Origin: a virus | Reading direction: 5' to 3' (one strand) | Length of the DNA: 49,956 nucleotides | Virus record (IMG/VR): IMGVR_UViG_3300035698_021428 | Shown here: piece by piece, positions 6,680 through 42,720 of the stretch | Position numbering within the stretch: position 1 is the stretch's first letter | Layout of the letters: every line of letters begins with the position of its first letter | Position numbers and translations under genes: made by a program | Notes under the pieces: model-generated | The model's input: the letters and a program-made list of their open reading frames with translations, nothing else | What the model was told of the DNA's origin: nothing | The model's database searches: none

Positions 6680-6762
6680 GCTGATGTGAGCCGAATTGGT
6701 AAGGCAGCACTCTTGTAAAGTGCCGAGGAAACTCACTGCAGGTTCGAGTCCTGTCATCAGCT
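6680..6762 (+). tRNA. long-variable-arm (class II-like) tRNA; hand-read anticodon UGU (6714-6716)
   Basis: Perfect acceptor gctgatg/catcagc. Leu/Tyr-like D loop gaattggtaa. Anticodon arm gcact-ctTGTaa-agtgc. The 14-nt variable arm has stem gag/ctc and a GAAA loop. T arm gcagg-ttcgagt-cctgt. Confidence 0.6.
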
Positions 6763-7452: not shown

Positions 7453-7553
7453 GTCTGCGTAGCTCAACGATAGAGCGCCCAACCTGCGATACAGTGTGCC
7501 CTTGGGAGACTGTCAGCTATGGGATGTTGCTGGTTCGAATCCAGTCGCAGACT
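7453..7553 (+). tRNA. tRNA-like gene (101 nt) with normal acceptor, D and T arms but a ~46-nt irregular anticodon region; anticodon not assignable by eye
   Basis: Acceptor gtctgcg/cgcagac. Arg-like D arm gtagctcaacgatagagc. T arm gctgg-ttcgaat-ccagt. Between them, cccaa...(a/t)tggg encloses the hairpin acagt-gtgcccttgggag-actgt. Confidence 0.5.
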
Positions 7554-7886: not shown

Positions 7887-8705
7887 TTATTCTGCATATG
7901 TTCTACGATACCAACCTTCATCTTGTTTGTGTTTAGATTCATTTAAGAACCAAGTGTAGTTACCTTTTTCTACAGATCCGTCTAACTTCTCGCTTCTAGC
8001 GGAACCATCTAAGAATCCAAAGTTGTTCTTATGATCTCCGTGCCAGTCGCCGTTGACAATATCTTTCTCGTATTTTTCTTCATCTGTATATCTACCTGAA
8101 TCCATCTGCGCCGCATCGCCGAGGACTATAAATCGAGATGGAACTGTCATGATATTGTGTATTTTCATTCGTTCGGTATAATTTCCGCCGCTACGATAAA
8201 GATTTTCAAACCCTTTTTTCGAACCTATATCACAATATAACCAGTCATTTGTAAAGTAACTTGTACCTAAAGCTCTCCCAACTGTGTGTTGATCTTGCTC
8301 ATTATGCCAAACAGTAGGCTCGCCGCTAGCGTAGTAACTTGTCCCGTTGTCTAACGGGCATGCAAAGATTTCTCCTCGTAAGCCAGTTGGGTAATATGCA
8401 TTTACTGGTCGAGCCTCTCTAAGAGTAAAGATATCTAAATCTGGATCATCAATAGCATCAAGAGATCCGCCCCACATCCATCGAACATTTCTTTCATAGT
8501 GCTCATCTGAAACAGGTACATTTTCATCATTTGAATCTGCATACATCGCCCAAGAAAGCAAATGCTGTCTTTGGTTGGATAAGCACTTAAGATTCATGGC
8601 AGTTTTTCTAGCAGAAGCAAGAGACGGAAGAAGAATAGCTATTAGAAGAGCTATGATGGATATAGAAACCAGCAACTCGATGAGGGTAAAACCTTGTTTG
8701 CGCAT
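7887..8705 (-). CDS. prepilin-type N-terminal cleavage/methylation domain protein (DUF1559-like pseudopilin), 272 aa
   Basis: 'MRKQGFTLIELLVSISIIALLIAILLPSL' is the type IV pilin-like leader plus hydrophobic helix. 'ARKTAMNLKCLSNQRQ' and the C-terminal 'HKNNFGFLDGS' resemble the DUF1559 family. Confidence 0.8.
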   Translation of the reverse strand: MRKQGFTLIELLVSISIIALLIAILLPSLASARKTAMNLKCLSNQRQHLLSWAMYADSNDENVPVSDEHYERNVRWMWGGSLDAIDDPDLDIFTLREARPVNAYYPTGLRGEIFACPLDNGTSYYASGEPTVWHNEQDQHTVGRALGTSYFTNDWLYCDIGSKKGFENLYRSGGNYTERMKIHNIMTVPSRFIVLGDAAQMDSGRYTDEEKYEKDIVNGDWHGDHKNNFGFLDGSARSEKLDGSVEKGNYTWFLNESKHKQDEGWYRRTYAE

Positions 8706-11158: not shown

Positions 11159-11241
11159 GGTGGCTATGGCAGATTGGTAATGCACCTGGTTGTGGACCAG
11201 GAACCGTAAGGTTTATGCGGGTTCAAATCCCGTTAGTCACC
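11159..11241 (+). tRNA. tRNA-His (GUG) with encoded G-1 and an unusual 15-nt variable arm
   Basis: 5' g-gtggcta resembles E. coli tRNA-His GGUGGCUA. Anticodon arm cctgg-ttGTGga-ccagg. Variable arm aacc-gtaa-ggtt-tat. T arm gcggg-ttcaaat-cccgt. C73. Confidence 0.7.
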
Positions 11242-11249
11242 CTTTAGTT

Positions 11250-14641: not shown

Positions 14642-14990
14642 TTTAGATATTGTTCCTTCGACTATTGAACAGGCTATTGATATACTTGAACGGTCGCTTT
14701 CAGATGAAGAGCGAAGCATGGTTATTCGGGATAAGGATGCTACTACCACGACTCATCACGGCGATGGCCGATGGATACGAAATAACTGGTCCCTTTGGCA
14801 AAAAGATCTACCGCTTGTTTTAGACTTCAATCGCAGAGGTATCCATCATGCAGACGATATGAGCGGGATACTCCTCACCAGTACCTCTCGACAGGTGAAA
14901 AAAGAACCGTTAGACTTAGATGAGCAGATCCAGTATTATCGAGATTACTGGCAAAGATCAGGTGTTGACCCTGATAACTTGGGAGGCTAA
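14631..14990 (+). CDS. hypothetical protein (119 aa)
   Basis: ORF track. Overlaps the previous gene by 11 nt. Confidence 0.55.
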   Translation: MNIDLDIVPSTIEQAIDILERSLSDEERSMVIRDKDATTTTHHGDGRWIRNNWSLWQKDLPLVLDFNRRGIHHADDMSGILLTSTSRQVKKEPLDLDEQIQYYRDYWQRSGVDPDNLGG

Positions 14991-14991
14991 A

Positions 14992-15540
14992 ATGTGTAGC
15001 AGCGATCGCAAACGCGCAAAAAAAGACCTAAGGCTTGCTACTTTTGTCGCAATATGTTCAATCCTTGCTTTTGTTCCGATTTGGTATTTTGCAATAAATG
15101 GCAGTATTATTGCTTCAACCTCAAACGATAATGATCCATTTCTAGTTGATATAAATATGATGTATATTGGCGATTTTGGGCTTGGTATTAGCACCTACCT
15201 TGATGAGAATCCACAATCAAGCGTCAAAGAAGCCTATAATGCAGCCTTATTGGATTCTGGGGCTAATTTCCGTAAAGCAATGAGCACGTTCACTGTGTAT
15301 CTAAATCCTAATCGTGAAATGTGGAAAGATTACTCACGATCAAAGGCAAGAAATGAAGCAATAAAACTTTTGATTCTTGCTAAATCTGTAGATAAAACTG
15401 GCGAGTATCTTGACCTGGTTATACTTGAGCATAGTAGCTGGATCGTTCGTAATCAAATTCTAACAGAAGAACTTGAAAAGCGACATCCTATGACAATATT
15501 TTCACAGTCAATATTACCAAATGATTTCATAGCAAAGTGA
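14992..15540 (+). CDS. hypothetical membrane-anchored protein (182 aa)
   Basis: GGGAGG RBS plus ATG 14992. One N-terminal TM helix (LATFVAICSILAFVPIWYFAI). Confidence 0.55.
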   Translation: MCSSDRKRAKKDLRLATFVAICSILAFVPIWYFAINGSIIASTSNDNDPFLVDINMMYIGDFGLGISTYLDENPQSSVKEAYNAALLDSGANFRKAMSTFTVYLNPNREMWKDYSRSKARNEAIKLLILAKSVDKTGEYLDLVILEHSSWIVRNQILTEELEKRHPMTIFSQSILPNDFIAK

Positions 15541-15585
15541 GGAAAAAGTTGCTAGACTGTGGGTTTCTTGAATCAGGGAGACAAG

Positions 15586-16215
15586 ATGTCTGAGCAAAAA
15601 AACGTATTGCCTAATAGCGACTGCAAAACCGGCGAAGCCAGTGCAATTAGGGATAAACACCCTTGCGAAGTTCCTCGTGATTATGTCTGTTCCATTTGCG
15701 ATCACAAAGGATCACTACATAGCGTTGGCATGATTCTTGAACGAGGCGATGACAGGGAAGACGGTGAAGACCAATACGCCTGCCCTAAATGCTTCTGGGA
15801 GCGAACCCCAATAGGAAAACACACGCCAGAGCCCTGGCATTGGCACATGGAAGATAGATCCACGATGTTTATTTCGGGCCTTCGTGATTACATCAAATAT
15901 CCTATTCTGAATGCAGCAAGATGCACAGCATGTCAAGATGCATGCGTTAATAATTTTCCTTGCGGATGGCCTTCTAAAGCTAATGCTGATCGTATCTGTA
16001 GTTGTGTCAACGCATGTACAGGTATTAAAGATCCTGAAAAAACAATAATTGAACTAAAGAGCGCCTTGCAAGATACTCTAGTGTTTGTAGGCAAAATAAT
16101 GAAAAATAAAAGGGATGCCGACCCAAACTATGATGAGTTCAATAACAAAGAATCAGAGATTTATGATAAACTTCACAGCGCTAGCCTGGCACTTAATAGT
16201 AAATATGGATGGTAG
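15586..16215 (+). CDS. Cys-rich hypothetical protein (209 aa)
   Basis: AGGGAG RBS plus ATG 15586. Multiple CxxC pairs. Confidence 0.55.
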   Translation: MSEQKNVLPNSDCKTGEASAIRDKHPCEVPRDYVCSICDHKGSLHSVGMILERGDDREDGEDQYACPKCFWERTPIGKHTPEPWHWHMEDRSTMFISGLRDYIKYPILNAARCTACQDACVNNFPCGWPSKANADRICSCVNACTGIKDPEKTIIELKSALQDTLVFVGKIMKNKRDADPNYDEFNNKESEIYDKLHSASLALNSKYGW

Positions 16216-16544
16216 AAGAAATTCAACAAGAAATTGACAAACTCCAACCGTTGTTTCGGGTTCTTGTCGAGTGGGATATAGTTGCTATCGTTGATAAGGA
16301 TTATCAATGCGAAGTTCATATCAACGAGAAAGAACGCAAAGCTTGTATCCTTCCTTGCTGTTGGGAAGGCTCAAAACCGAATGATTATGTATTTCATGAG
16401 CTAATGCATCTTTGTTGTCGAGAAATTAGTTTGGGAGAATATTCCGAACGGCGGGAAAAAGAAGAAATATTTGTTCAAGACTTAAGTAAGTTATTTAGAA
16501 GTTTTTTGGATCAATCCAACTATGAAGATTTATTGCGACATTGA
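16209..16544 (+). CDS. small protein with HExxH motif (HELMH), possible minimal metallopeptidase (111 aa)
   Basis: ORF track. 'YVFHELMHLCC'. Confidence 0.45.
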   Translation: MVEEIQQEIDKLQPLFRVLVEWDIVAIVDKDYQCEVHINEKERKACILPCCWEGSKPNDYVFHELMHLCCREISLGEYSERREKEEIFVQDLSKLFRSFLDQSNYEDLLRH

Positions 16545-23436: not shown

Positions 23437-26127
23437 ATGCAAGACAATGATTCCGGCGCAATCCGAGGATCATCAGGCGATCTTTTGATCCCTGAAGGTT
23501 CATATGCTCATTTTTAAGGACTAACAACTGGCGCAATTTCGACCAAGGTTGGGCCTGCAAGCGTTTCGCAATCGGGGCAAGAACGTCCTGTTGCGTTCGA
23601 TCCAGCAAGGCGACAATTCATTGAAGTTAGCCGAGAAAGTTCGGTCAAACTCAATGTTATCGCTGATGAAACCAGTTATGTTATTCTTTCAAATCCGTGC
23701 ATTGCAGTCGCAGACGGCGATGACCAGCTTATTTTTCCAGGATCTTCGGACAAGATTCCCAATCAAGGTCTAGAGAGCGGTCGAAAAGTTGTGGTTCATG
23801 GACCTGTCGAATTTTCGCTTTGGCCTGGACAGACTGCAGAAGTTGTCCCGGGTCATGCTCTTCGCTCAAATGAATATCTTGAACTTGTTGTTTATGATGC
23901 TGATGAAGCAAAAGCCAACTGGGAATCAGCCTCCGTTGTTGAGACCAAGAAAACTGGCGGCGATAAAGAAGATAAAGATGATACGCAGGTTACGTCTACT
24001 GCCCCTGCTGATCTTCTTATGGGACAACGATTGGTTGTCAAGGGAACTGAGGTTTCATTCTATCGTCCTCCAACTGGTATACAGGTTGTTCAGAACGAAG
24101 ACAATATCTTTATTCGACAAGCTGTTTCCCTTGAATTACTTGAATACTGTATTCTTATCGACGAAAATGGCAACAAAAGGTATGAGAAGGGACCAGCAGT
24201 TGTTCTTCCTCGTCCATCTGAACGATTTGAAAAAAGCTCTAGAGGCAATAGAAAATTTAGAGCCATTGAGCTTCAAGACCAGGCAGGCGTTCATATCAAA
24301 GCGCTCAAGACCTACCAGGATGACGACGGAAAAGATCGCAAAGCTGGTGATGAATTCTTCTTGACGGGCAAAGATCGTCCTATCTACTACCCTCGCGAAG
24401 AAGAAGCCGTTATTCCTTATAGCGATGGCGAAAAGATTCACTTCGCTGTTGCGGTTCCCAAGGGGGAAGGCCGCTACGTTATGAATAAGACCACCGGTGA
24501 GATCGCAACGATCATCGGCCCCAAGATGCTTCTTTGCGATCCGACTAATGAAGTCATCGTTCGTCGCATCCTTACTGACAGACAAAGTAATGATTGGTAT
24601 CCTGGTAATGATAACTCTAGGCAATACAATCGCAATCTTCGAGAGATTCAGGAAGCTGCAGGAACGGCTGGTGATTTTGTTGACGATACATCAACACGGC
24701 AGGCAGCAACCAGGGGGCTTCATTCGCTGCGAGAAAAAGGCAATCCAAGAGTAGGCGGAGCTTCGTTCTCAAGTATGTCCGCTTCCGCCGGATCGGAACG
24801 AGGTTTTGAAAGCTTCGAACAAGCTGGTTCAGCAATGATGGGAGAACTAGATCGGCCATCAAGCTATACAGAACCCAAAAGCATTACTCTTGATACACGT
24901 TTTGCAGGAGTTCCTGGTATTGAGCTTTGGACAGGCTACACCGTTATGGTCGTTGACAGAGAAGGAAACCGCCGAATCGTCAGCGGTCCAACCAATATTC
25001 TGCTCAATTATGACGAGTCATTAGAAATCATAGAACTTTCTACCGGCAAACCAAAATCAACAAAAGGATTGATTCGCACAGTATATCTTCGCAGAGATAA
25101 TAATAAGGTTTCCGATTATGTTGAAGTTGAGACAAAAGACCATGTGAAAGTACAAGTAAAACTGTCATTCCTGGTCAATTTTGTTGAAGACAATCCTAAT
25201 GACGATCAGGATGATACCGATTATCAAGAGCGTTGGTTTGCTAGCGAAAACTATGTCAAGCTTCTTTGCGATCATGTTCGCTCGATTCTTAAGGGCGAAG
25301 CTAAAAAGCACGATATCAATAACTTTTATATCAACTCAACATCTATCATCAGAGATATCATTCTTGGTAATCGTCAGGAAGATGGCAGAACAGGTATGTT
25401 CTTTGAACATAATGGTATGCATGTTATCGATGTTGAGGTTCTTGGAACAGAAATTCTTGATCACAGCATTGCTTCGCTACTTACTGGCTCTCAGCGAGAA
25501 GCAGTTGAATCAAGTATTCGTCTTCAGTCTGCCGAAAGAACGCTTAATGTAACTGAGCAAATGGAAGCGATGTCTCGTAAAGAAGCAGTTGCTAAGAATG
25601 AGACCAAGAAGCACGCACACGATCTAACGATAGAAAGCATTGGAAGAACTCTGAAGGAGTCCCTAGCAGACATATCTTCAGAACAAGACAAGTCCGTTCA
25701 TAGGCTTACTGCTCGTACTGCCGAAGCTGAAGCTACTAAAATGGCAAACGTTATTGAGGCCGAAGCTGCGGTCGCAGGAAGCGAGATTGAGCGAGAAGAT
25801 CAGAAACTCGATCATGAACAGAAAATCTTAGAAGCAGAAGAAATAGCTAGGCTTGACAAGGAAGCGATTGAAACCGAAGTCAAGGCCACAGTTGATAAGC
25901 TCAAGGCCCTTGAAGGTTCGGGGTTGACCGACGTTCTTGCTACGCTTGGTCGAGAAGACTTCTTGACCCGTATAGCTGAATCCAGCAATCTTGAACGATT
26001 GATTGGCGGAGCTAGCGTCCAAGATACTTTGACCGGAATTTTCGGCGTTGAGTCGCCTATTGCTAAGGCGTTCGTTGCTATCAAGGCAGGAAAGCCGCTT
26101 GCTCAATCTTTGCTCAATAGCGACTAG
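23437..26127 (+). CDS. major vault protein (MVP) homolog: vault repeats, SPFH-like shoulder and cap-helix (~896 codons) with one in-frame TAA at 23515-23517
   Basis: GGAGA RBS plus ATG 23437. 'LLIPEGSYAHF*GLTTGAISTKVGP..ERPVAF' vs human MVP '[25 protein letters not shown]..ERVLF'. 'GDEFFLTGKDRPIYYPREEEAVI' vs '[21 protein letters not shown]'. 'YVMNKTTGEIATIIGPKMLL' vs '[20 protein letters not shown]'. E/A/K-rich C-terminal helix. The track ORF 23791 starts at an internal GTG. Confidence 0.8.
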
Positions 26128-26158
26128 TAACGGCTGATATCAGCGATGATACGATTCA

Positions 26159-26188
26159 GAGCCTCCGTCTTTTGGCGGGGGCTCTTTT
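26159..26188 (+). terminator. rho-independent terminator after the MVP gene
   Basis: Stem gagcctccgtc/ggcgggggctc, loop tttt, then TTTT. Confidence 0.8.
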
Positions 26189-26302
26189 ATTTGTGTATCA
26201 TGTGAATAAAATATATGATAGAATAAACTTTGTACTAAAAGGCGGACAAGGCGCTGCCACTGACGAGGAAAATGTGCCGATGGGATAGTAGAACAATAAA
26301 CT

Positions 26303-26655
26303 GGGGGCGATATGGAATCGCTTCAGTAGGGTAGGAAGGATTGTTGCGAGCCGGGGAACCATGCTTAGGCCCCGTAAAAAAGTATGGAATAATTAGTTGC
26401 CAACAGCAACCCACTCCGCATCGCTGCTTGACAGCGGTGCCTGCAAGTCCTGAACGCCGATACGGGATACGCAGAAGATTTTCGGCTGGTCGTCTGAACA
26501 ACTGTTTCAACCAACAGACGATGAGATAAAGGATGAGACCGCTCCCTGTCGCAGACTGTCGCTGGTCGGCTAGGGGCTAAGATAAAACATCGACTACGCT
26601 CGTAGAAACGCCCAACAAACTACTGAACACGGCGGTTCGAATCCGCCCGCCTCCA
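26303..26655 (+). ncRNA. ssrA: tmRNA (SsrA), tag ANSNPLRIAA
   Basis: 5' GGGGGCGAUAUGGAAUCGC.. pairs with 3' ..GGCGGUUCGAAUCCGCCCGCCUCCA (G3:U70, T arm). The tag ORF GCC AAC AGC AAC CCA CTC CGC ATC GCT GCT TGA lies at 26399-26431. Confidence 0.85.
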
Positions 26656-26664
26656 TTTAGAAAG

Positions 26665-26690
26665 CCCGTATCCGCAAGGATGCGGGTTTT
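26665..26690 (+). terminator. rho-independent terminator after tmRNA
   Basis: cccgtatcc-gcaa-ggatgcggg followed by TTTT. Confidence 0.85.
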
Positions 26691-26760
26691 CTTTTGCGCA
26701 AATAAAATCTTCAGGTGCCCAGACGGTTATGTATAATGCATTTTATCAAGGAGCCAACAA

Positions 26761-28564: not shown

Positions 28565-28831
28565 TATATTACTTCCTGTAAGTTACAGAAGCCTAGCTGA
28601 ATACCGCCTCGAATAGGGGTTGTAGACAGTTTTTATTGGCGTGGAATAGTAGGTAGATGCCTTTTGGCTCGCCGATACATCTGAATCACTAGTAATAGCT
28701 AGCTTATTTTCAATATGGCTAGCAGGTGAATCAAATTCGACTAAACTTGTCGAACCATGAATCGTCGAACAGGGCTTGCGGCGGAGCCGCTGTTCGTATA
28801 CAAACCGACGCCGCAACAGGAGTGCGAAAGC

Positions 28832-30064
28832 ATGCGACTCAATAAGCTCAGTACGAGCATGACAATCATTGGAATGCTGTCTGCTGCATCTGCCTTTGCG
28901 CAGGATGGTGCCCAGGTCACGAATAGCGAGGACCATCAACGTATGATGTCATCTGAAATAATGAATGACGCAGTATCCCGCAGCGGTACACAATCTGGTC
29001 ATAATGGAAACGGATTCTTTTTCTCAGATCCCGATAGAGACTTCACCCTTAACATCGATGGACAGCTTCAGTTTCGCTACTATGCGAACTTTACTGACAT
29101 GGGAAAAACGGACACAACAACTGGTTTTGAGACGGCTCGAACAAAATTGAGATTTAGCGGCGATGTCAACACCTTCGATTATACAGTTGAAGGTGTTTTT
29201 GCTCCGTCAGGCGGCGGGTTTATGCTGCAAGACGCATTCTTCGGTCACTCTCTAGGTAGCAATGCCAACGTTCAGGTTGGTCAGTTTACGCTACCATTCA
29301 TGCGAGAACAGAACGTTGACAGTAGATATCAGCTTGCTGTTGAACGATCAGTTACCGATGCCGTATTTAATCAGGGCAGAGGCCAGGGTTTGCAGTTGAC
29401 GTTTACTCCTGTGGATATGGATAATGTTCGCTTTACAGCGGCATTCAGCGATGGGTTTAGCACGGCTAACACAGCGTACACATCTTCAATGGAAGCTGAT
29501 TACGCAATTACTGGTCGTTTAGATTGGCTCGCCGCAGGCGAATGGTCTCAGTTCGACGACTTTACTTCTCAACAAGATGAAGATTTTGGTTTCCTTGTAG
29601 GCCTTGCTGGTCACCTGCAGGAAGGCGGCGAAACTGGCGGAACTATGGACACTAAAATGTTCAGTTATACTGCAGATGCTAGCGTTGAGAATGGAGGGTT
29701 CAGTGCCTTTGTTTCAGGCGTTACTCGTTCTACCGAAACTACGGCAACTGAGTTCGATGATTTCGGGCTGGTCGCTCAAAGCGGTTTTAGGGTTACTGAA
29801 AAAGATGAACTATTCGCTCGATGGGATGCTGTCTACGCTGATAGCGATCGTGGTCTTACGAATGATGAGTTCAACTATCTGACCGCTGGCTACAATAGGT
29901 ATCTTGCTGGACACTCAGCTAAGTTCACAGCCGATGTTGTTTATGCTGTTGATGATACTGCTGGTATCGGAAGTCTGACCTCATCCCTTGGCGGACTTGG
30001 AATAATGAGCAGCATGGAAAGCGAAGATGTAGCCTTACGAGTACAGCTACAGCTTCTTTTCTGA
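28832..30064 (+). CDS. outer-membrane beta-barrel porin (porin O/P-like), 410 aa
   Basis: Signal peptide 'MRLNKLSTSMTIIGMLSAASAFA|QDG'. Alternating beta-strand pattern 'FTLNIDGQLQFRYYANF'. C-terminal '...LRVQLQLLF' with terminal Phe. Confidence 0.75.
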   Translation: MRLNKLSTSMTIIGMLSAASAFAQDGAQVTNSEDHQRMMSSEIMNDAVSRSGTQSGHNGNGFFFSDPDRDFTLNIDGQLQFRYYANFTDMGKTDTTTGFETARTKLRFSGDVNTFDYTVEGVFAPSGGGFMLQDAFFGHSLGSNANVQVGQFTLPFMREQNVDSRYQLAVERSVTDAVFNQGRGQGLQLTFTPVDMDNVRFTAAFSDGFSTANTAYTSSMEADYAITGRLDWLAAGEWSQFDDFTSQQDEDFGFLVGLAGHLQEGGETGGTMDTKMFSYTADASVENGGFSAFVSGVTRSTETTATEFDDFGLVAQSGFRVTEKDELFARWDAVYADSDRGLTNDEFNYLTAGYNRYLAGHSAKFTADVVYAVDDTAGIGSLTSSLGGLGIMSSMESEDVALRVQLQLLF

Positions 30065-31079: not shown

Positions 31080-32729
31080 ATGGCAACCAAACTTGGAAAA
31101 GGCGAGTATCCCAGCGATCATTCGCCAGAAGACTTTAAATGCTTTGGCCCTCCTGCTCAGGAAGACGGTCAGTTTGACGGCATGATGATGGCTGACATGG
31201 GCTGCTTCAAGCAAGATGGTACAGATTCCAACAAATTCTACCATGGCGCAGTTGTTCAATCCAAAAAAGATGATAGCTGGTATGCCTACTATGAATGGGG
31301 CAGAACTGGGAAAGGTTCTTCTGATAAGCAATTCGTTTGTTGTTCGTCGAAAGAAGAAGCTGAACAAGTATTCTGCAAGCAGATGCACTCCAAAAATGAC
31401 AAGCGAGGCGAATGGGTCAAGATAGGCAGTAAAGACATTCTAAGAGCGAAGACAGGCAAAGACTGCTACCTTATCCGTCCGCTCGCAAAGCGATCTCATG
31501 GCCTTCCAGACGCTCAGACAATCGTCCATGACGATAGCGGCAAAGCTGGCAGCGCCGTCGCTAAGAAAACAACCAAAAAGACCGGAAAGAAAACCAGCAA
31601 AAAGATTGCTAAGAAAAAATCAAACGTTGATCCAAAGACTCTTAGTCTTATGAAGGATATGAACGTTGCAGCGGTTGAATTTACTCGCTCGCAGGTTGAT
31701 AGCGATGCAGTCCCAACTCAAGGCGTTATCGATGAAGGCAGAGATGTTCTTATCGAAGCGGAAAAAAGAGTTAAGAAAATTGGATCAAAGCTTGAAGAAC
31801 AAATTAGCGATAGAGACCTTCGAGATCTAACGTATCATCTCTATTCTCGAATCGGGAAGCCAAAGCCTCTCAATACGCTTGAATCTGCCTGGATTCTTTC
31901 TCAAGACAACATCATGCGTTGGCGAATGGACCTTGATACATTTGAGCAGGCATTATATGCTCTTGACCTAGGCATTGGCAGCGATACTCAGAATACCTTT
32001 GATCCGTTCAATGGCATGAATATTGAGATGATTCATCTCGACCCGACTAAAACGGCTGAAGGTCAATTTATTCACAATTGGATGCCTGGCGCAACGAAAA
32101 ACGTCCACGGGCACGTTGGCGACATGAGTATTGTCAACGCATGGGGCGTTCGTCAAACTGATTTTGCACCAAAATTTGAAGCAACTGCTGCAAAGATTGG
32201 TAATCGCAATTTCACCCCATCTGACAAACCTATCAAGCAGCCCCGAAAACGATCTGATATCTCGCCAGAAATGGCTAAACTATTCGATCAAGCAAATGTC
32301 AATCTCTTATTCCATGGAACAAGATCTGTCAATGTTCCTGGCATTCTTCGCACAGGGCTAAGGCTCCCCAGAGAGCTTGTTGGAGTTGTCCTTACTGGCG
32401 CAATGTTTGGACCCGGTATCTATTGGGCCGATGATTGGAAAAAATCAGACGGTTACACTTCTCGACCAGGAACTTATTGGTCAAGAGGCGGGGGACAGGT
32501 CAAAGGTCGCAAGGCTTTTATGTTTGTTGCCAATGTTGCTCTTGGCAATCCTCATATTGCTCGCGGTCCTCAAGGATATACTGCTCCGCCGAAAGGTTGC
32601 GATTGTGTTGCAGGTCTTGCTAATAAGAGCAGCGTAGCCAACAACGAATGGATTGTTTACGACAGTATGCAAAATTCTCTTACATATCTTATTGAATACG
32701 AAGTTTCAGGCAGCAGCCGTCGCTGGTAA
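31080..32729 (+). CDS. poly(ADP-ribose) polymerase-like protein: WGR, Lys-rich linker, helical regulatory domain and PARP catalytic domain (549 aa)
   Basis: WGR 'FYHGAVVQSKKDDSWYAYYEWGRTGKG'. Linker 'AKKTTKKTGKKTSKKIAKKKS'. Catalytic H-Y-E triad: 'LLFHGTRSVNVPGIL', 'FGPGIYWADDW' and 'NNEWIVYDSMQNSLTYLIEYEV' (PARP1: '[22 protein letters not shown]'). Confidence 0.9.
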   Translation: MATKLGKGEYPSDHSPEDFKCFGPPAQEDGQFDGMMMADMGCFKQDGTDSNKFYHGAVVQSKKDDSWYAYYEWGRTGKGSSDKQFVCCSSKEEAEQVFCKQMHSKNDKRGEWVKIGSKDILRAKTGKDCYLIRPLAKRSHGLPDAQTIVHDDSGKAGSAVAKKTTKKTGKKTSKKIAKKKSNVDPKTLSLMKDMNVAAVEFTRSQVDSDAVPTQGVIDEGRDVLIEAEKRVKKIGSKLEEQISDRDLRDLTYHLYSRIGKPKPLNTLESAWILSQDNIMRWRMDLDTFEQALYALDLGIGSDTQNTFDPFNGMNIEMIHLDPTKTAEGQFIHNWMPGATKNVHGHVGDMSIVNAWGVRQTDFAPKFEATAAKIGNRNFTPSDKPIKQPRKRSDISPEMAKLFDQANVNLLFHGTRSVNVPGILRTGLRLPRELVGVVLTGAMFGPGIYWADDWKKSDGYTSRPGTYWSRGGGQVKGRKAFMFVANVALGNPHIARGPQGYTAPPKGCDCVAGLANKSSVANNEWIVYDSMQNSLTYLIEYEVSGSSRRW

Positions 32730-42648: not shown

Positions 42649-42720
42649 GCTTCGTTAGCTCAATGGTAGAGCAATAGTTTCTAAAACTACAGGTTGTCGG
42701 TTCGAGTCCGACACGAGGCA
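42649..42720 (+). tRNA. suppressor tRNA, anticodon CUA (reads UAG); body resembles tRNA-Lys
   Basis: Acceptor gcttcgt/acgaggc. D arm gctc-aatggta-gagc. Anticodon arm atagt-ttCTAaa-actac (anticodon 42681-42683, A27-C43 mismatch). T arm gtcgg-ttcgagt-ccgac. A73. Confidence 0.75.

Follow-up and report, generated by a model that had tools for sequence, protein, structure and literature searches.

A conserved one-piece tmRNA gene on a large virus-like element

The IMG/VR virus record IMGVR_UViG_3300035698_021428 supplied a stretch of 49,956 nucleotides that we analyzed in full (hereafter, the window), and on its forward strand, at 26303-26655, we identified a gene for a one-piece transfer-messenger RNA (tmRNA) whose predicted tag peptide is ANSNPLRIAA. 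The gene itself, its structure, its conservation among relatives and its residence on a large element are matters of observation. We consider it likely that this is a functional tmRNA gene, that the replicon carrying it (virus-like, about 0.5 Mb, from a rare family of such marine genomes) is in all probability a megaphage, and that its product carries out trans-translation during infection.

A complete tmRNA gene with alanine-type ends

ARAGORN called a one-piece tmRNA at 26303-26655 (+) with the tag ANSNPLRIAA*, the coding part of which occupies gene positions 97-129 (26399-26431 of the window). The Rfam family RF00023 matched 26303-26658 with 129.6 bits (E = 1.7e-50) and was covered over positions 1-374 of 374; because this score compares with a gathering score of 47 bits, chance is excluded as the source of the call. 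Both programs agree with the sequence-only reading, an earlier annotation of this DNA that had proposed a tmRNA with this tag at this place. The mature-length RNA has 353 nt and ends at the discriminator A.

The ends of the RNA resemble those of tRNA-Ala, as had been proposed. The 5' strand of the acceptor stem (GGGGGCG, 26303..26309; this and all parts that follow are on the + strand) holds G3 of the G3:U70 alanine identity pair, and the 3' strand (CGCCUCC, including U70, plus the discriminator A; 26648..26655) closes the gene as ...CCUCCA, after which the DNA continues with UUU and not with an encoded CCA. The T arm, GGCGG-UUCGAAU-CCGCC, lies at 26631..26647. The window copy also has the GGUUCGAAUCC-type T loop of RF00023 and, with no anticodon arm, the long H2 helix in its stead. 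The strands of H2, UUCAGUAG ... GCGAGC at 26322..26351 and GCUCGU AGA ... CUACUGAA at 26598..26627, form a duplex of -22.5 kcal/mol by RNAduplex (-21 to -26 kcal/mol in relatives).

The first pseudoknot, PK1 (CGGGG/CCCCG and CCAUGCU/AGUAUGG), spans 26352..26387 and is followed at 26393..26431 by the resume context UUAGUU and the tag frame, GCC AAC AGC AAC CCA CUC CGC AUC GCU GCU UGA. The frame ends in the AA-TGA configuration given by the sequence-only reading, with the UGA stop in the loop of the H5 hairpin (GCAUCGCUG / CAGCGGUGC; 26418..26440, as we read the sequence and alignments). Three further pseudoknots follow: PK2 (CUGC..GUCCUG / CGGGAU..GCAG and loop GCCGA / UCGGC; 26441..26486), PK3 (UCGUCUG/CAGACGA and GUUUCA/UGAGAC; 26490..26539) and PK4 (GC-CCCU/AGGGGC, GAC/GUC and loop GUCGCUG/CAUCGAC; 26541..26594). 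Every sequence-level feature of RF00023 membership that we tested was found in this gene.

Compensatory substitutions preserve the tmRNA fold in related copies

We used a 20-mer spanning the resume codon, AATTAGTTGCCAACAGCAAC, as a query for homologues in IMG/VR and metagenome contigs, and retrieved two further copies through look-up of neighboring proteins. The resulting set comprises eight distinct element copies: the window, L001 (498.6 kb), L023 (502.5 kb), L003 (488 kb), L007, L005, L011 and the partial L012. Pairwise identities among them range from 56 to 98%, the 20-mer is invariant in 8/8, and the Rfam scores of the other copies (55-119 bits) are all above threshold. The partial tmRNA of L012 (787-1047) looks recombinant, with a 5' part of L005 type and a 3' part of L003 type.

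We wrote the canonical tmRNA helices, including the pseudoknots, by hand onto an alignment of seven sequences from independent assemblies and counted the pairs. In this 67-pair structure, standard pairs occupy 97.3% of 440 cells, compared with 34-45% in a control in which the partners were slid by 1-3 columns. Compensatory changes occur at 26 of the 67 pairs (1-3 pairs when partners were slid), and none of 500 shuffles reached the observed values of pairing and covariation. Covariation was seen in the acceptor stem, T arm, PK1, H5, PK2 and PK4.

The individual helices bear this out. The acceptor stem forms 7/7 pairs in all full-length copies, with compensatory changes at positions 5, 6 and 7, and its G3:U pair is invariant in the six full-length aligned copies, with the same bases in L023. 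All copies form 5/5 pairs in the T arm (three pairs with compensatory changes) and 6/6 in the H2d segment. In PK1, both stems are paired in 100% of cells in the seven sequences; stem 1 shows G-C to A-U changes and stem 2 C-G versus G-C. PK2 has compensatory changes in 8 of the 10 pairs of stem 1, and its stem 2 alternates between G-C and U-A. PK4 has such changes in 5/7 and 3/7 pairs of its two stems, the second of which pairs 6/7 in the window copy. PK3 aligns poorly, yet its complementarity is perfect: four lineages form both stems with differing sequences at the same positions. PK1 to PK4 and the tRNA-like domain, whose loss from a covariance model the sequence-only reading had named as the result that would count against it, are thus all traced and backed by relatives. 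Two long-range pairings suggested by RNAalifold (81-86/254-259 and 182-186/245-249) were dropped, since the canonical pseudoknot pairings fit all sequences. The pattern of substitution indicates that purifying selection acts on the tmRNA structure.

Transcription unit and processing signals

A strong intrinsic terminator (CCCGUAUCC-GCAA-GGAUGCGGG, then UUUUCUUUU; 26665..26695 (+), terminator-scan core 26670-26687) starts 10 nt past the gene. It consists of a 9-bp stem with a GCAA loop (26665-26686) and a T-run; that the tmRNA has its own terminator had been noted in the sequence-only reading. A different hairpin with a T-run stands at the corresponding site in the relatives, every lineage having its own terminator. 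The gene upstream, which encodes a homologue of the Major Vault Protein (MVP), has a terminator of its own at 26158..26185 (+; 12-bp stem, then a T-run), and the tmRNA is therefore a separate transcription unit. The 117-nt spacer at 26186..26302 (+) is the expected site of the tmRNA promoter and RNase P leader. Five relatives (L001, L003, L005, L007 and L011) have in common a leader, CCTCTTTGACAAC(T/C)T, that abuts the mature 5' end (about 15 nt upstream) and that the window lacks; this leader contains TTGACA, yet lies too near the 5' end to be the -35 box of the tmRNA.

CCA is encoded in no element copy, the trailer being UUU or CUU, unlike the bacterial tmRNAs L013 and L019, in which it is encoded. 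The window holds 13 tRNAs, one of them called by Rfam alone, and these and the tmRNA all lack an encoded CCA. TT directly follows 13 of these 14 genes and TA the remaining one (for the tRNAs alone, 12/13 and 1/13), and the tmRNA trailer is TTT. With a trailer and a CCA-less end like those of the window tRNAs, the gene therefore has the element's own tRNA-gene style, and the shared TT trailer suggests a common 3'-processing signal.

Several tRNA genes are over-long. These lie at 2026-2113, 6680-6762, 7453-7553 and 11160-11242 and comprise Arg(CCU) of 88 nt, Thr(UGU) of 83 nt, His of 83 nt and the Rfam-only tRNA of 101 nt, in which the anticodon and variable region are enlarged by about 30 bases. 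Insertions or introns may account for the added length of these genes.

Residence on a virus-like replicon of about 0.5 Mb

Around the tmRNA, the window encodes in order a histidine kinase (HK), two response regulators (RR), a small open reading frame (ORF), the MVP homologue, the tmRNA, a 406-aa protein without a family, a porin and a PARP/WGR protein. The order HK-RR-RR-(MVP)-tmRNA-406aa-porin-PARP recurs on the 498.6-kb and 502.5-kb contigs, and the neighborhood is rearranged on the 488-kb contig, which lacks MVP there, and on shorter contigs. These relatives belong to IMG/VR uncultivated viral genomes (UViGs) of 488,051 and 498,568 bp and to a 502,461-bp contig named ctg..._c with 378x coverage, whose suffix, going by the name, would mean circular. 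The 498-502-kb relatives are on record as ERZ17089788 NODE_1289088, ERZ25074452 ctg12106, IMGVR_UViG_3300020429_000529 and IMGVR_UViG_3300020429_000539. Syntenic homologues of the tmRNA are thus found on contigs 488-502 kb long, of which two are listed in IMG/VR. The sequence-only reading had taken the gene to be element-encoded, and its placement on a large non-chromosomal element is supported.

The content of the window is phage-like in several respects. One strand dominates, about half of the ORFs have no Pfam family, and phage-type families are present: a phosphoesterase (phrog_547), HNH endonucleases and an Fe-S oxidoreductase common to Microcystis phages and Lak megaphages. Core cellular genes (ribosomal, replication, core metabolic) were absent from this 50-kb window of a genome of about 0.5 Mb. 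We use the word phage tentatively, on the strength of the IMG/VR listing of the relatives, the PHROG-type content and the non-cellular gene content.

We weighed the possibility that the window derives from a bacterial genome, maybe a small one, and that the gene is an ordinary chromosomal ssrA. Near-universal occurrence of tmRNA in bacteria favors this, as do the aminoacyl-tRNA synthetase, tRNAs, two-component system, porin and PhoD of the window and the overlap of a replicon of about 0.5 Mb with reduced bacterial genome sizes. Against it stand the viral classification of the relatives in IMG/VR, the lack of core genes over 50 kb, the family-less small ORFs on one strand with HNH endonucleases and phage-type families, and the presence of suppressor tRNAs and in-frame stops (below). 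Moreover, smpB adjoins ssrA on the bacterial contig L013 and not in the window: the high-GC contigs L009 and L013, which share the 20-mer, are bacterial, and there smpB stands beside an ssrA that encodes CCA and the tag ANSNFALAA. A scan of genome-collection contigs gave one chance match without a tmRNA and no species genome carrying the element tmRNA. We regard a chromosomal origin as very improbable.

A second possibility is that the gene is a passenger, a decaying copy or an integration-site mimic without function in the element. Phages often carry 3' fragments of tRNA or tmRNA genes as att sites, and the neighborhood is rearranged among the relatives; the gene is full length, however, compensatory substitutions keep every helix in copies down to 56% identity, and the gene is kept despite local rearrangement, with its own terminator in every lineage. 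Such a functionless copy is hardly credible. The comparisons indicate instead that the tmRNA is encoded by the element, has long been resident there and is not a host ssrA.

Neither the tmRNA (blastn) nor 24 kb of the window (megablast) matched any of 50,697 GenBank phage records, and translated searches of these records with the ORFs of 406 and 994 aa (tblastn) were likewise negative. Exact patterns of the tag DNA and MVP peptides were not found in IMG/VR, and a look-up of the exact sequence of the window's PARP protein gave no entry.

Host affiliation

The element tmRNA is 61-66% identical to the bacterial tmRNAs that we recovered and 60-62% identical to an E. coli tmRNA sequence taken as a baseline. 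The bacterial tmRNAs with the 20-mer are Planctomycetota-like, as judged from SmpB names and from their tags. A comparison of the tag with those of candidate hosts, which the sequence-only reading had put forward as a way to infer the host, assigned none: the ANSN start matches the Planctomycetota-like tags, and overall similarity is at the E. coli baseline. We do not claim a Planctomycetota-like donor or host, since 61-66% identity is no better than that to the E. coli sequence.

Of 46 genes, 22 have a Shine-Dalgarno-like motif ahead of them, the background being 13%. The window encodes a phosphate-selective porin O/P homologue (28757-30064, +) and a protein whose N terminus bears a prepilin-type methylation motif (7887-8705, -), both of which suggest a diderm host.

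An unusual and conserved tag

The family carries three tags: ANSNPLRIAA in the window, ANSNTLRMAA in six copies and ANSNTLRAAA in L023. The pattern ANSN-x-LR-x-AA is thus conserved while the remaining RNA diverges to 56% identity. Position -3, occupied by Leu in the canonical LAA tail, can be I, M or A, and the Arg at -4 is fixed. Each of the changes in the -3 codon (AUC, AUG, GCG) is matched by its pairing partner in the 3' strand of H5. The tag stop codon is UGA or UAA in the family, never UAG. In the bacterial tmRNAs that we recovered, the tag closes with (Y/F)ALAA (ANSNFALAA, ANSNYALAA, ANGNYALAA). The family therefore amounts to a natural experiment on tags, in which eight copies keep ANSN-x-LR-x-AA and vary the residue that is canonically Leu, each change being compensated in H5.

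Proposed function in trans-translation

How the RNA is expressed and charged, which proteins partner it, what becomes of tagged proteins and whether rescue is coupled to suppression are argued here by analogy, each step being drawn from the established tmRNA pathway. The tmRNA would be transcribed as its own unit between the two terminators, its 5' end cut by RNase P and its 3' end trimmed at the U-rich trailer, after which CCA would be added, as the element's CCA-less tRNAs would need too. Alanyl-tRNA synthetase would charge it with alanine through G3:U70, and SmpB and EF-Tu would bring it to ribosomes that have stalled at the 3' end of an mRNA; the SmpB is presumed to be the host's because no smpB was seen in the element. 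The ribosome would then move to the GCC resume codon, append ANSNPLRIAA and stop at UGA, which would free the ribosome and mark the peptide. Ribosomes would in this way be kept available during infection while host mRNA decay and suppressor-driven readthrough of UAG yield non-stop complexes.

Several observations weigh against a phage-borne, working tmRNA. Genes for capsid, portal and terminase were not found in the window or in the related loci that we read. Pfam and tblastn searches of the window and of some 150 kb of related loci detected no SmpB; a scan for SmpB in IMG/VR was dominated by smpB genes flanking prophages, and the related contigs were not among the best 80 matches listed. The upstream region of the tmRNA contains no convincing promoter, the one candidate being a weak sigma-70-like match at 26172-26201. 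The distant relatives L021 and L022 have a tRNA with a CUA anticodon and no tmRNA in the 20 kb retrieved. Finally, the tail R-[I/M/A]-AA is unlike the (Y/F)ALAA of the recovered bacterial tmRNAs and may or may not serve as a degron.

The last of these points, together with the missing smpB, also bears on a reading in which the phage tmRNA interferes with or re-tags host products: it would compete for host SmpB, and its R-[I/M/A]-AA tail would be handled differently by host ClpXP and adaptors, or host trans-translation responses would be blunted. Consistent with this are the constancy with which the tail differs from (Y/F)ALAA, the freedom of position -3 (I, M, A) next to a fixed Arg at -4, the absence of a detected element smpB in the window and related loci, and a precedent in phage DS6A, whose tmRNA, reduced to the tRNA-like domain, was proposed to titrate SmpB (PMC4131195). 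Conservation of the messenger part, resume context, H5 and terminal AA, however, fits productive tagging and not mere titration. We think interference distinctly unlikely and favor productive trans-translation.

Suppressor tRNAs and a possible link to readthrough

The sequence-only reading had noted suppressor tRNAs, a PTH2 gene and interrupted genes alongside the tmRNA, and had proposed on that basis a link between ribosome rescue and stop-codon readthrough. The suppressor tRNAs are borne out by both ARAGORN and Rfam: one with anticodon CUA and discriminator A at 42649..42720 (+; Rfam tRNA 68.6 bits) and a second with anticodon CUA and discriminator G at 45505..45577 (+; 63.9 bits). Part of the rest holds. 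A PTH2-like frame of 129 aa is present at 48233-48622 (+), but it needs readthrough of the TAG at 48371, perhaps also of that at 48245, for a domain-length product, and the Pfam PTH2 match, which spans the TAG at 48371, is sub-threshold (21 bits against a cut-off of 23). Interrupted genes number two in the window, the TAG case at 48371 and a TAA case in the MVP gene at 23515, and TAA is not readable by a CUA tRNA. The true start of the MVP gene is at 23437, and its in-frame TAA (23515-23517, codon 27) falls where the closest homologue has Gln. Beyond it, 91 codons are conserved, and no ATG, GTG or TTG start occurs before 23791. Possible explanations of this TAA are a nonsense mutation, an error of assembly and readthrough of UAA. 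No UUA tRNA was found in the window. The MVP gene ends in a tandem TAG-TAA at 26125-26130.

Taken as a whole, the window is read well by the standard code. Coding coverage under code 11 is 0.876 and rises to 0.916 when TAG is read as sense, a gain barely above that for the other two stops, and ORFs ending in TAG show no backup-stop signal, the distance to the next stop being that expected by chance.

These data bear on a specialized coupling, in which the tmRNA would act mainly as a safety valve of the element's amber suppression, clearing ribosomes that the CUA tRNAs have driven past UAG stops of host and early genes into 3' untranslated regions, or that have stalled at UAG if RF1 is inhibited, and tagging the extended proteins. 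Two CUA tRNAs lie in the window and one lies 3.5 kb from the tmRNA in the relative L005; 19 of the 75 window ORFs have a TAG stop, past which they would be lengthened; and the tag's own stop avoids UAG throughout the family. There is precedent in E. coli, where suppressor tRNAs increase SsrA tagging, as PMC3985003 relates from Ueda 2002, and where ribosomes at an unassigned UAG are rescued by tmRNA (PMC6207430). However, the evidence for coupling is one of co-occurrence alone: the 20-kb loci of L001 and L023 have no CUA tRNA near the tmRNA, and L021 and L022 have a CUA tRNA without a nearby tmRNA. In addition, tmRNAs also occur in phages not reported to recode (mycobacteriophages, phage G), the evidence for recoding in the window is thin, and UAA is in any case the usual stop codon of tmRNAs. 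With the E. coli precedent, a link between rescue and readthrough is plausible, and we put it forward tentatively; as the main role of the tmRNA, such coupling is possible and no more than a minority prospect beside general trans-translation.

A stronger version, which we hold to be unlikely, is a co-evolved module in which amber suppressors derail termination on UAG-ended host messages, the element tmRNA clears the ribosomes and the LR-x-AA tail routes extended host proteins otherwise than (Y/F)ALAA would. If true, it would amount to selective shut-off and recycling of host proteins. The presence of a tmRNA beside amber suppressors makes testable the idea that phages that tamper with termination must raise rescue capacity, which has a precedent in E. 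coli.

Further genes with a bearing on translation or on the stringent response accompany the suppressor tRNAs. They encode an HD_4 protein (RelA/SpoT-type hydrolase-like; 45580-46179), a SpoU-family RNA methyltransferase (42988-43659) and a class II (Asp/Asn/Lys-type) aminoacyl-tRNA synthetase (649-1803). In L021 (7755-7828) and L022 (4193-4266), which also carry the CUA suppressor tRNA, ARAGORN calls a tRNA with a four-base anticodon (ttgg) that could be frameshift-suppressor-like. A split HisRS across the ORFs at 14920-16544 was dropped, as Pfam gave no match there.

Vault-type neighbors

Directly upstream of the tmRNA lies a full-length MVP homologue (23437-26130, +; Vault, Vault_3, MVP_shoulder), 55% identical to a 915-aa protein of the 498.6-kb relative, and 5 kb downstream of the tmRNA lies a protein with PARP-catalytic and WGR domains (31080-32729, +). 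Two vault-particle-type components are thus found on a putative megaphage; in the searchable literature, we found MVP reported for Borgs only and not for phages. A functional pairing of MVP and tmRNA by analogy to vault RNA was rejected, since the adjacency is not conserved: L001 and L023 have one gene between the two, and the loci of L003 and L021 are without MVP.

Comparison with known systems

The RNA has the make-up of a bacterial one-piece tmRNA (RF00023): an alanine-type domain with G3:U70, H2, PK1, a resume context with U-A-G-U, a tag of 10 residues that closes with AA, a stop in the H5 loop and PK2-PK4. Unlike its bacterial counterparts, it is carried by a virus-like replicon some 0.5 Mb in size, has no adjacent smpB and no encoded CCA, bears the tail LR[I/M/A]AA in place of (Y/F)ALAA, and is no more than 61-66% identical to those recovered here.

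As the sequence-only reading had stated, tmRNAs are known from very large phages (PMC7162821, PMC4131195, PMC12484599). Huge phages encode tmRNA and also SmpB (Al-Shayeb et al. 2020, PMC7162821), the marine megaphage Mar_Mega_1 carries a tmRNA (bioRxiv 10.1101/2021.07.26.453748), and Bacillus phage G has one with the tag AKLNITNNELQVA (PMC12484599, 2025; reported earlier in PMC4131195 and PMC1475703). Our element shares with huge phages and megaphages a tmRNA accompanied by many tRNAs, an aminoacyl-tRNA synthetase and translation genes on a genome of several hundred kilobases, and the same rationale of sustaining translation would apply. It differs in lacking detectable DNA similarity to the 50,697 GenBank phage records, which makes it a separate lineage with its own tag, and in the absence from the window and related loci of the phage SmpB reported by Al-Shayeb et al.

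Mycobacteriophage tmRNAs are likewise documented (PMC4131195, PMC1475703). Those of cluster C (Bxz1, Cali, Catera and others) resemble ours in being full-length phage ssrA genes beside large tRNA sets; these phages are about 155 kb in size and infect Actinobacteria, however, and their tmRNAs are unrelated in sequence. We know of no report of a suppressor-tRNA context for cluster C tmRNAs.

With stop-codon-recoded phages (Borges et al., bioRxiv 10.1101/2021.08.26.457843), the element has in common the presence of CUA tRNAs on a genome that is large and phage-like and, in the PTH2-like frame with its sub-threshold Pfam match, at least one candidate for a conserved-domain ORF dependent on UAG readthrough. 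In contrast to them, the window mostly uses the standard code, and its best-supported interrupted gene, that for MVP, has a TAA and not a TAG; the preprint of Borges et al. does not mention tmRNA (0 occurrences). Together, these comparisons place the element tmRNA in a class already known from phages, what is new being another lineage with an unusual tag. The import is limited: marine replicons of about 0.5 Mb join the large phages that have a ribosome-rescue RNA of their own.

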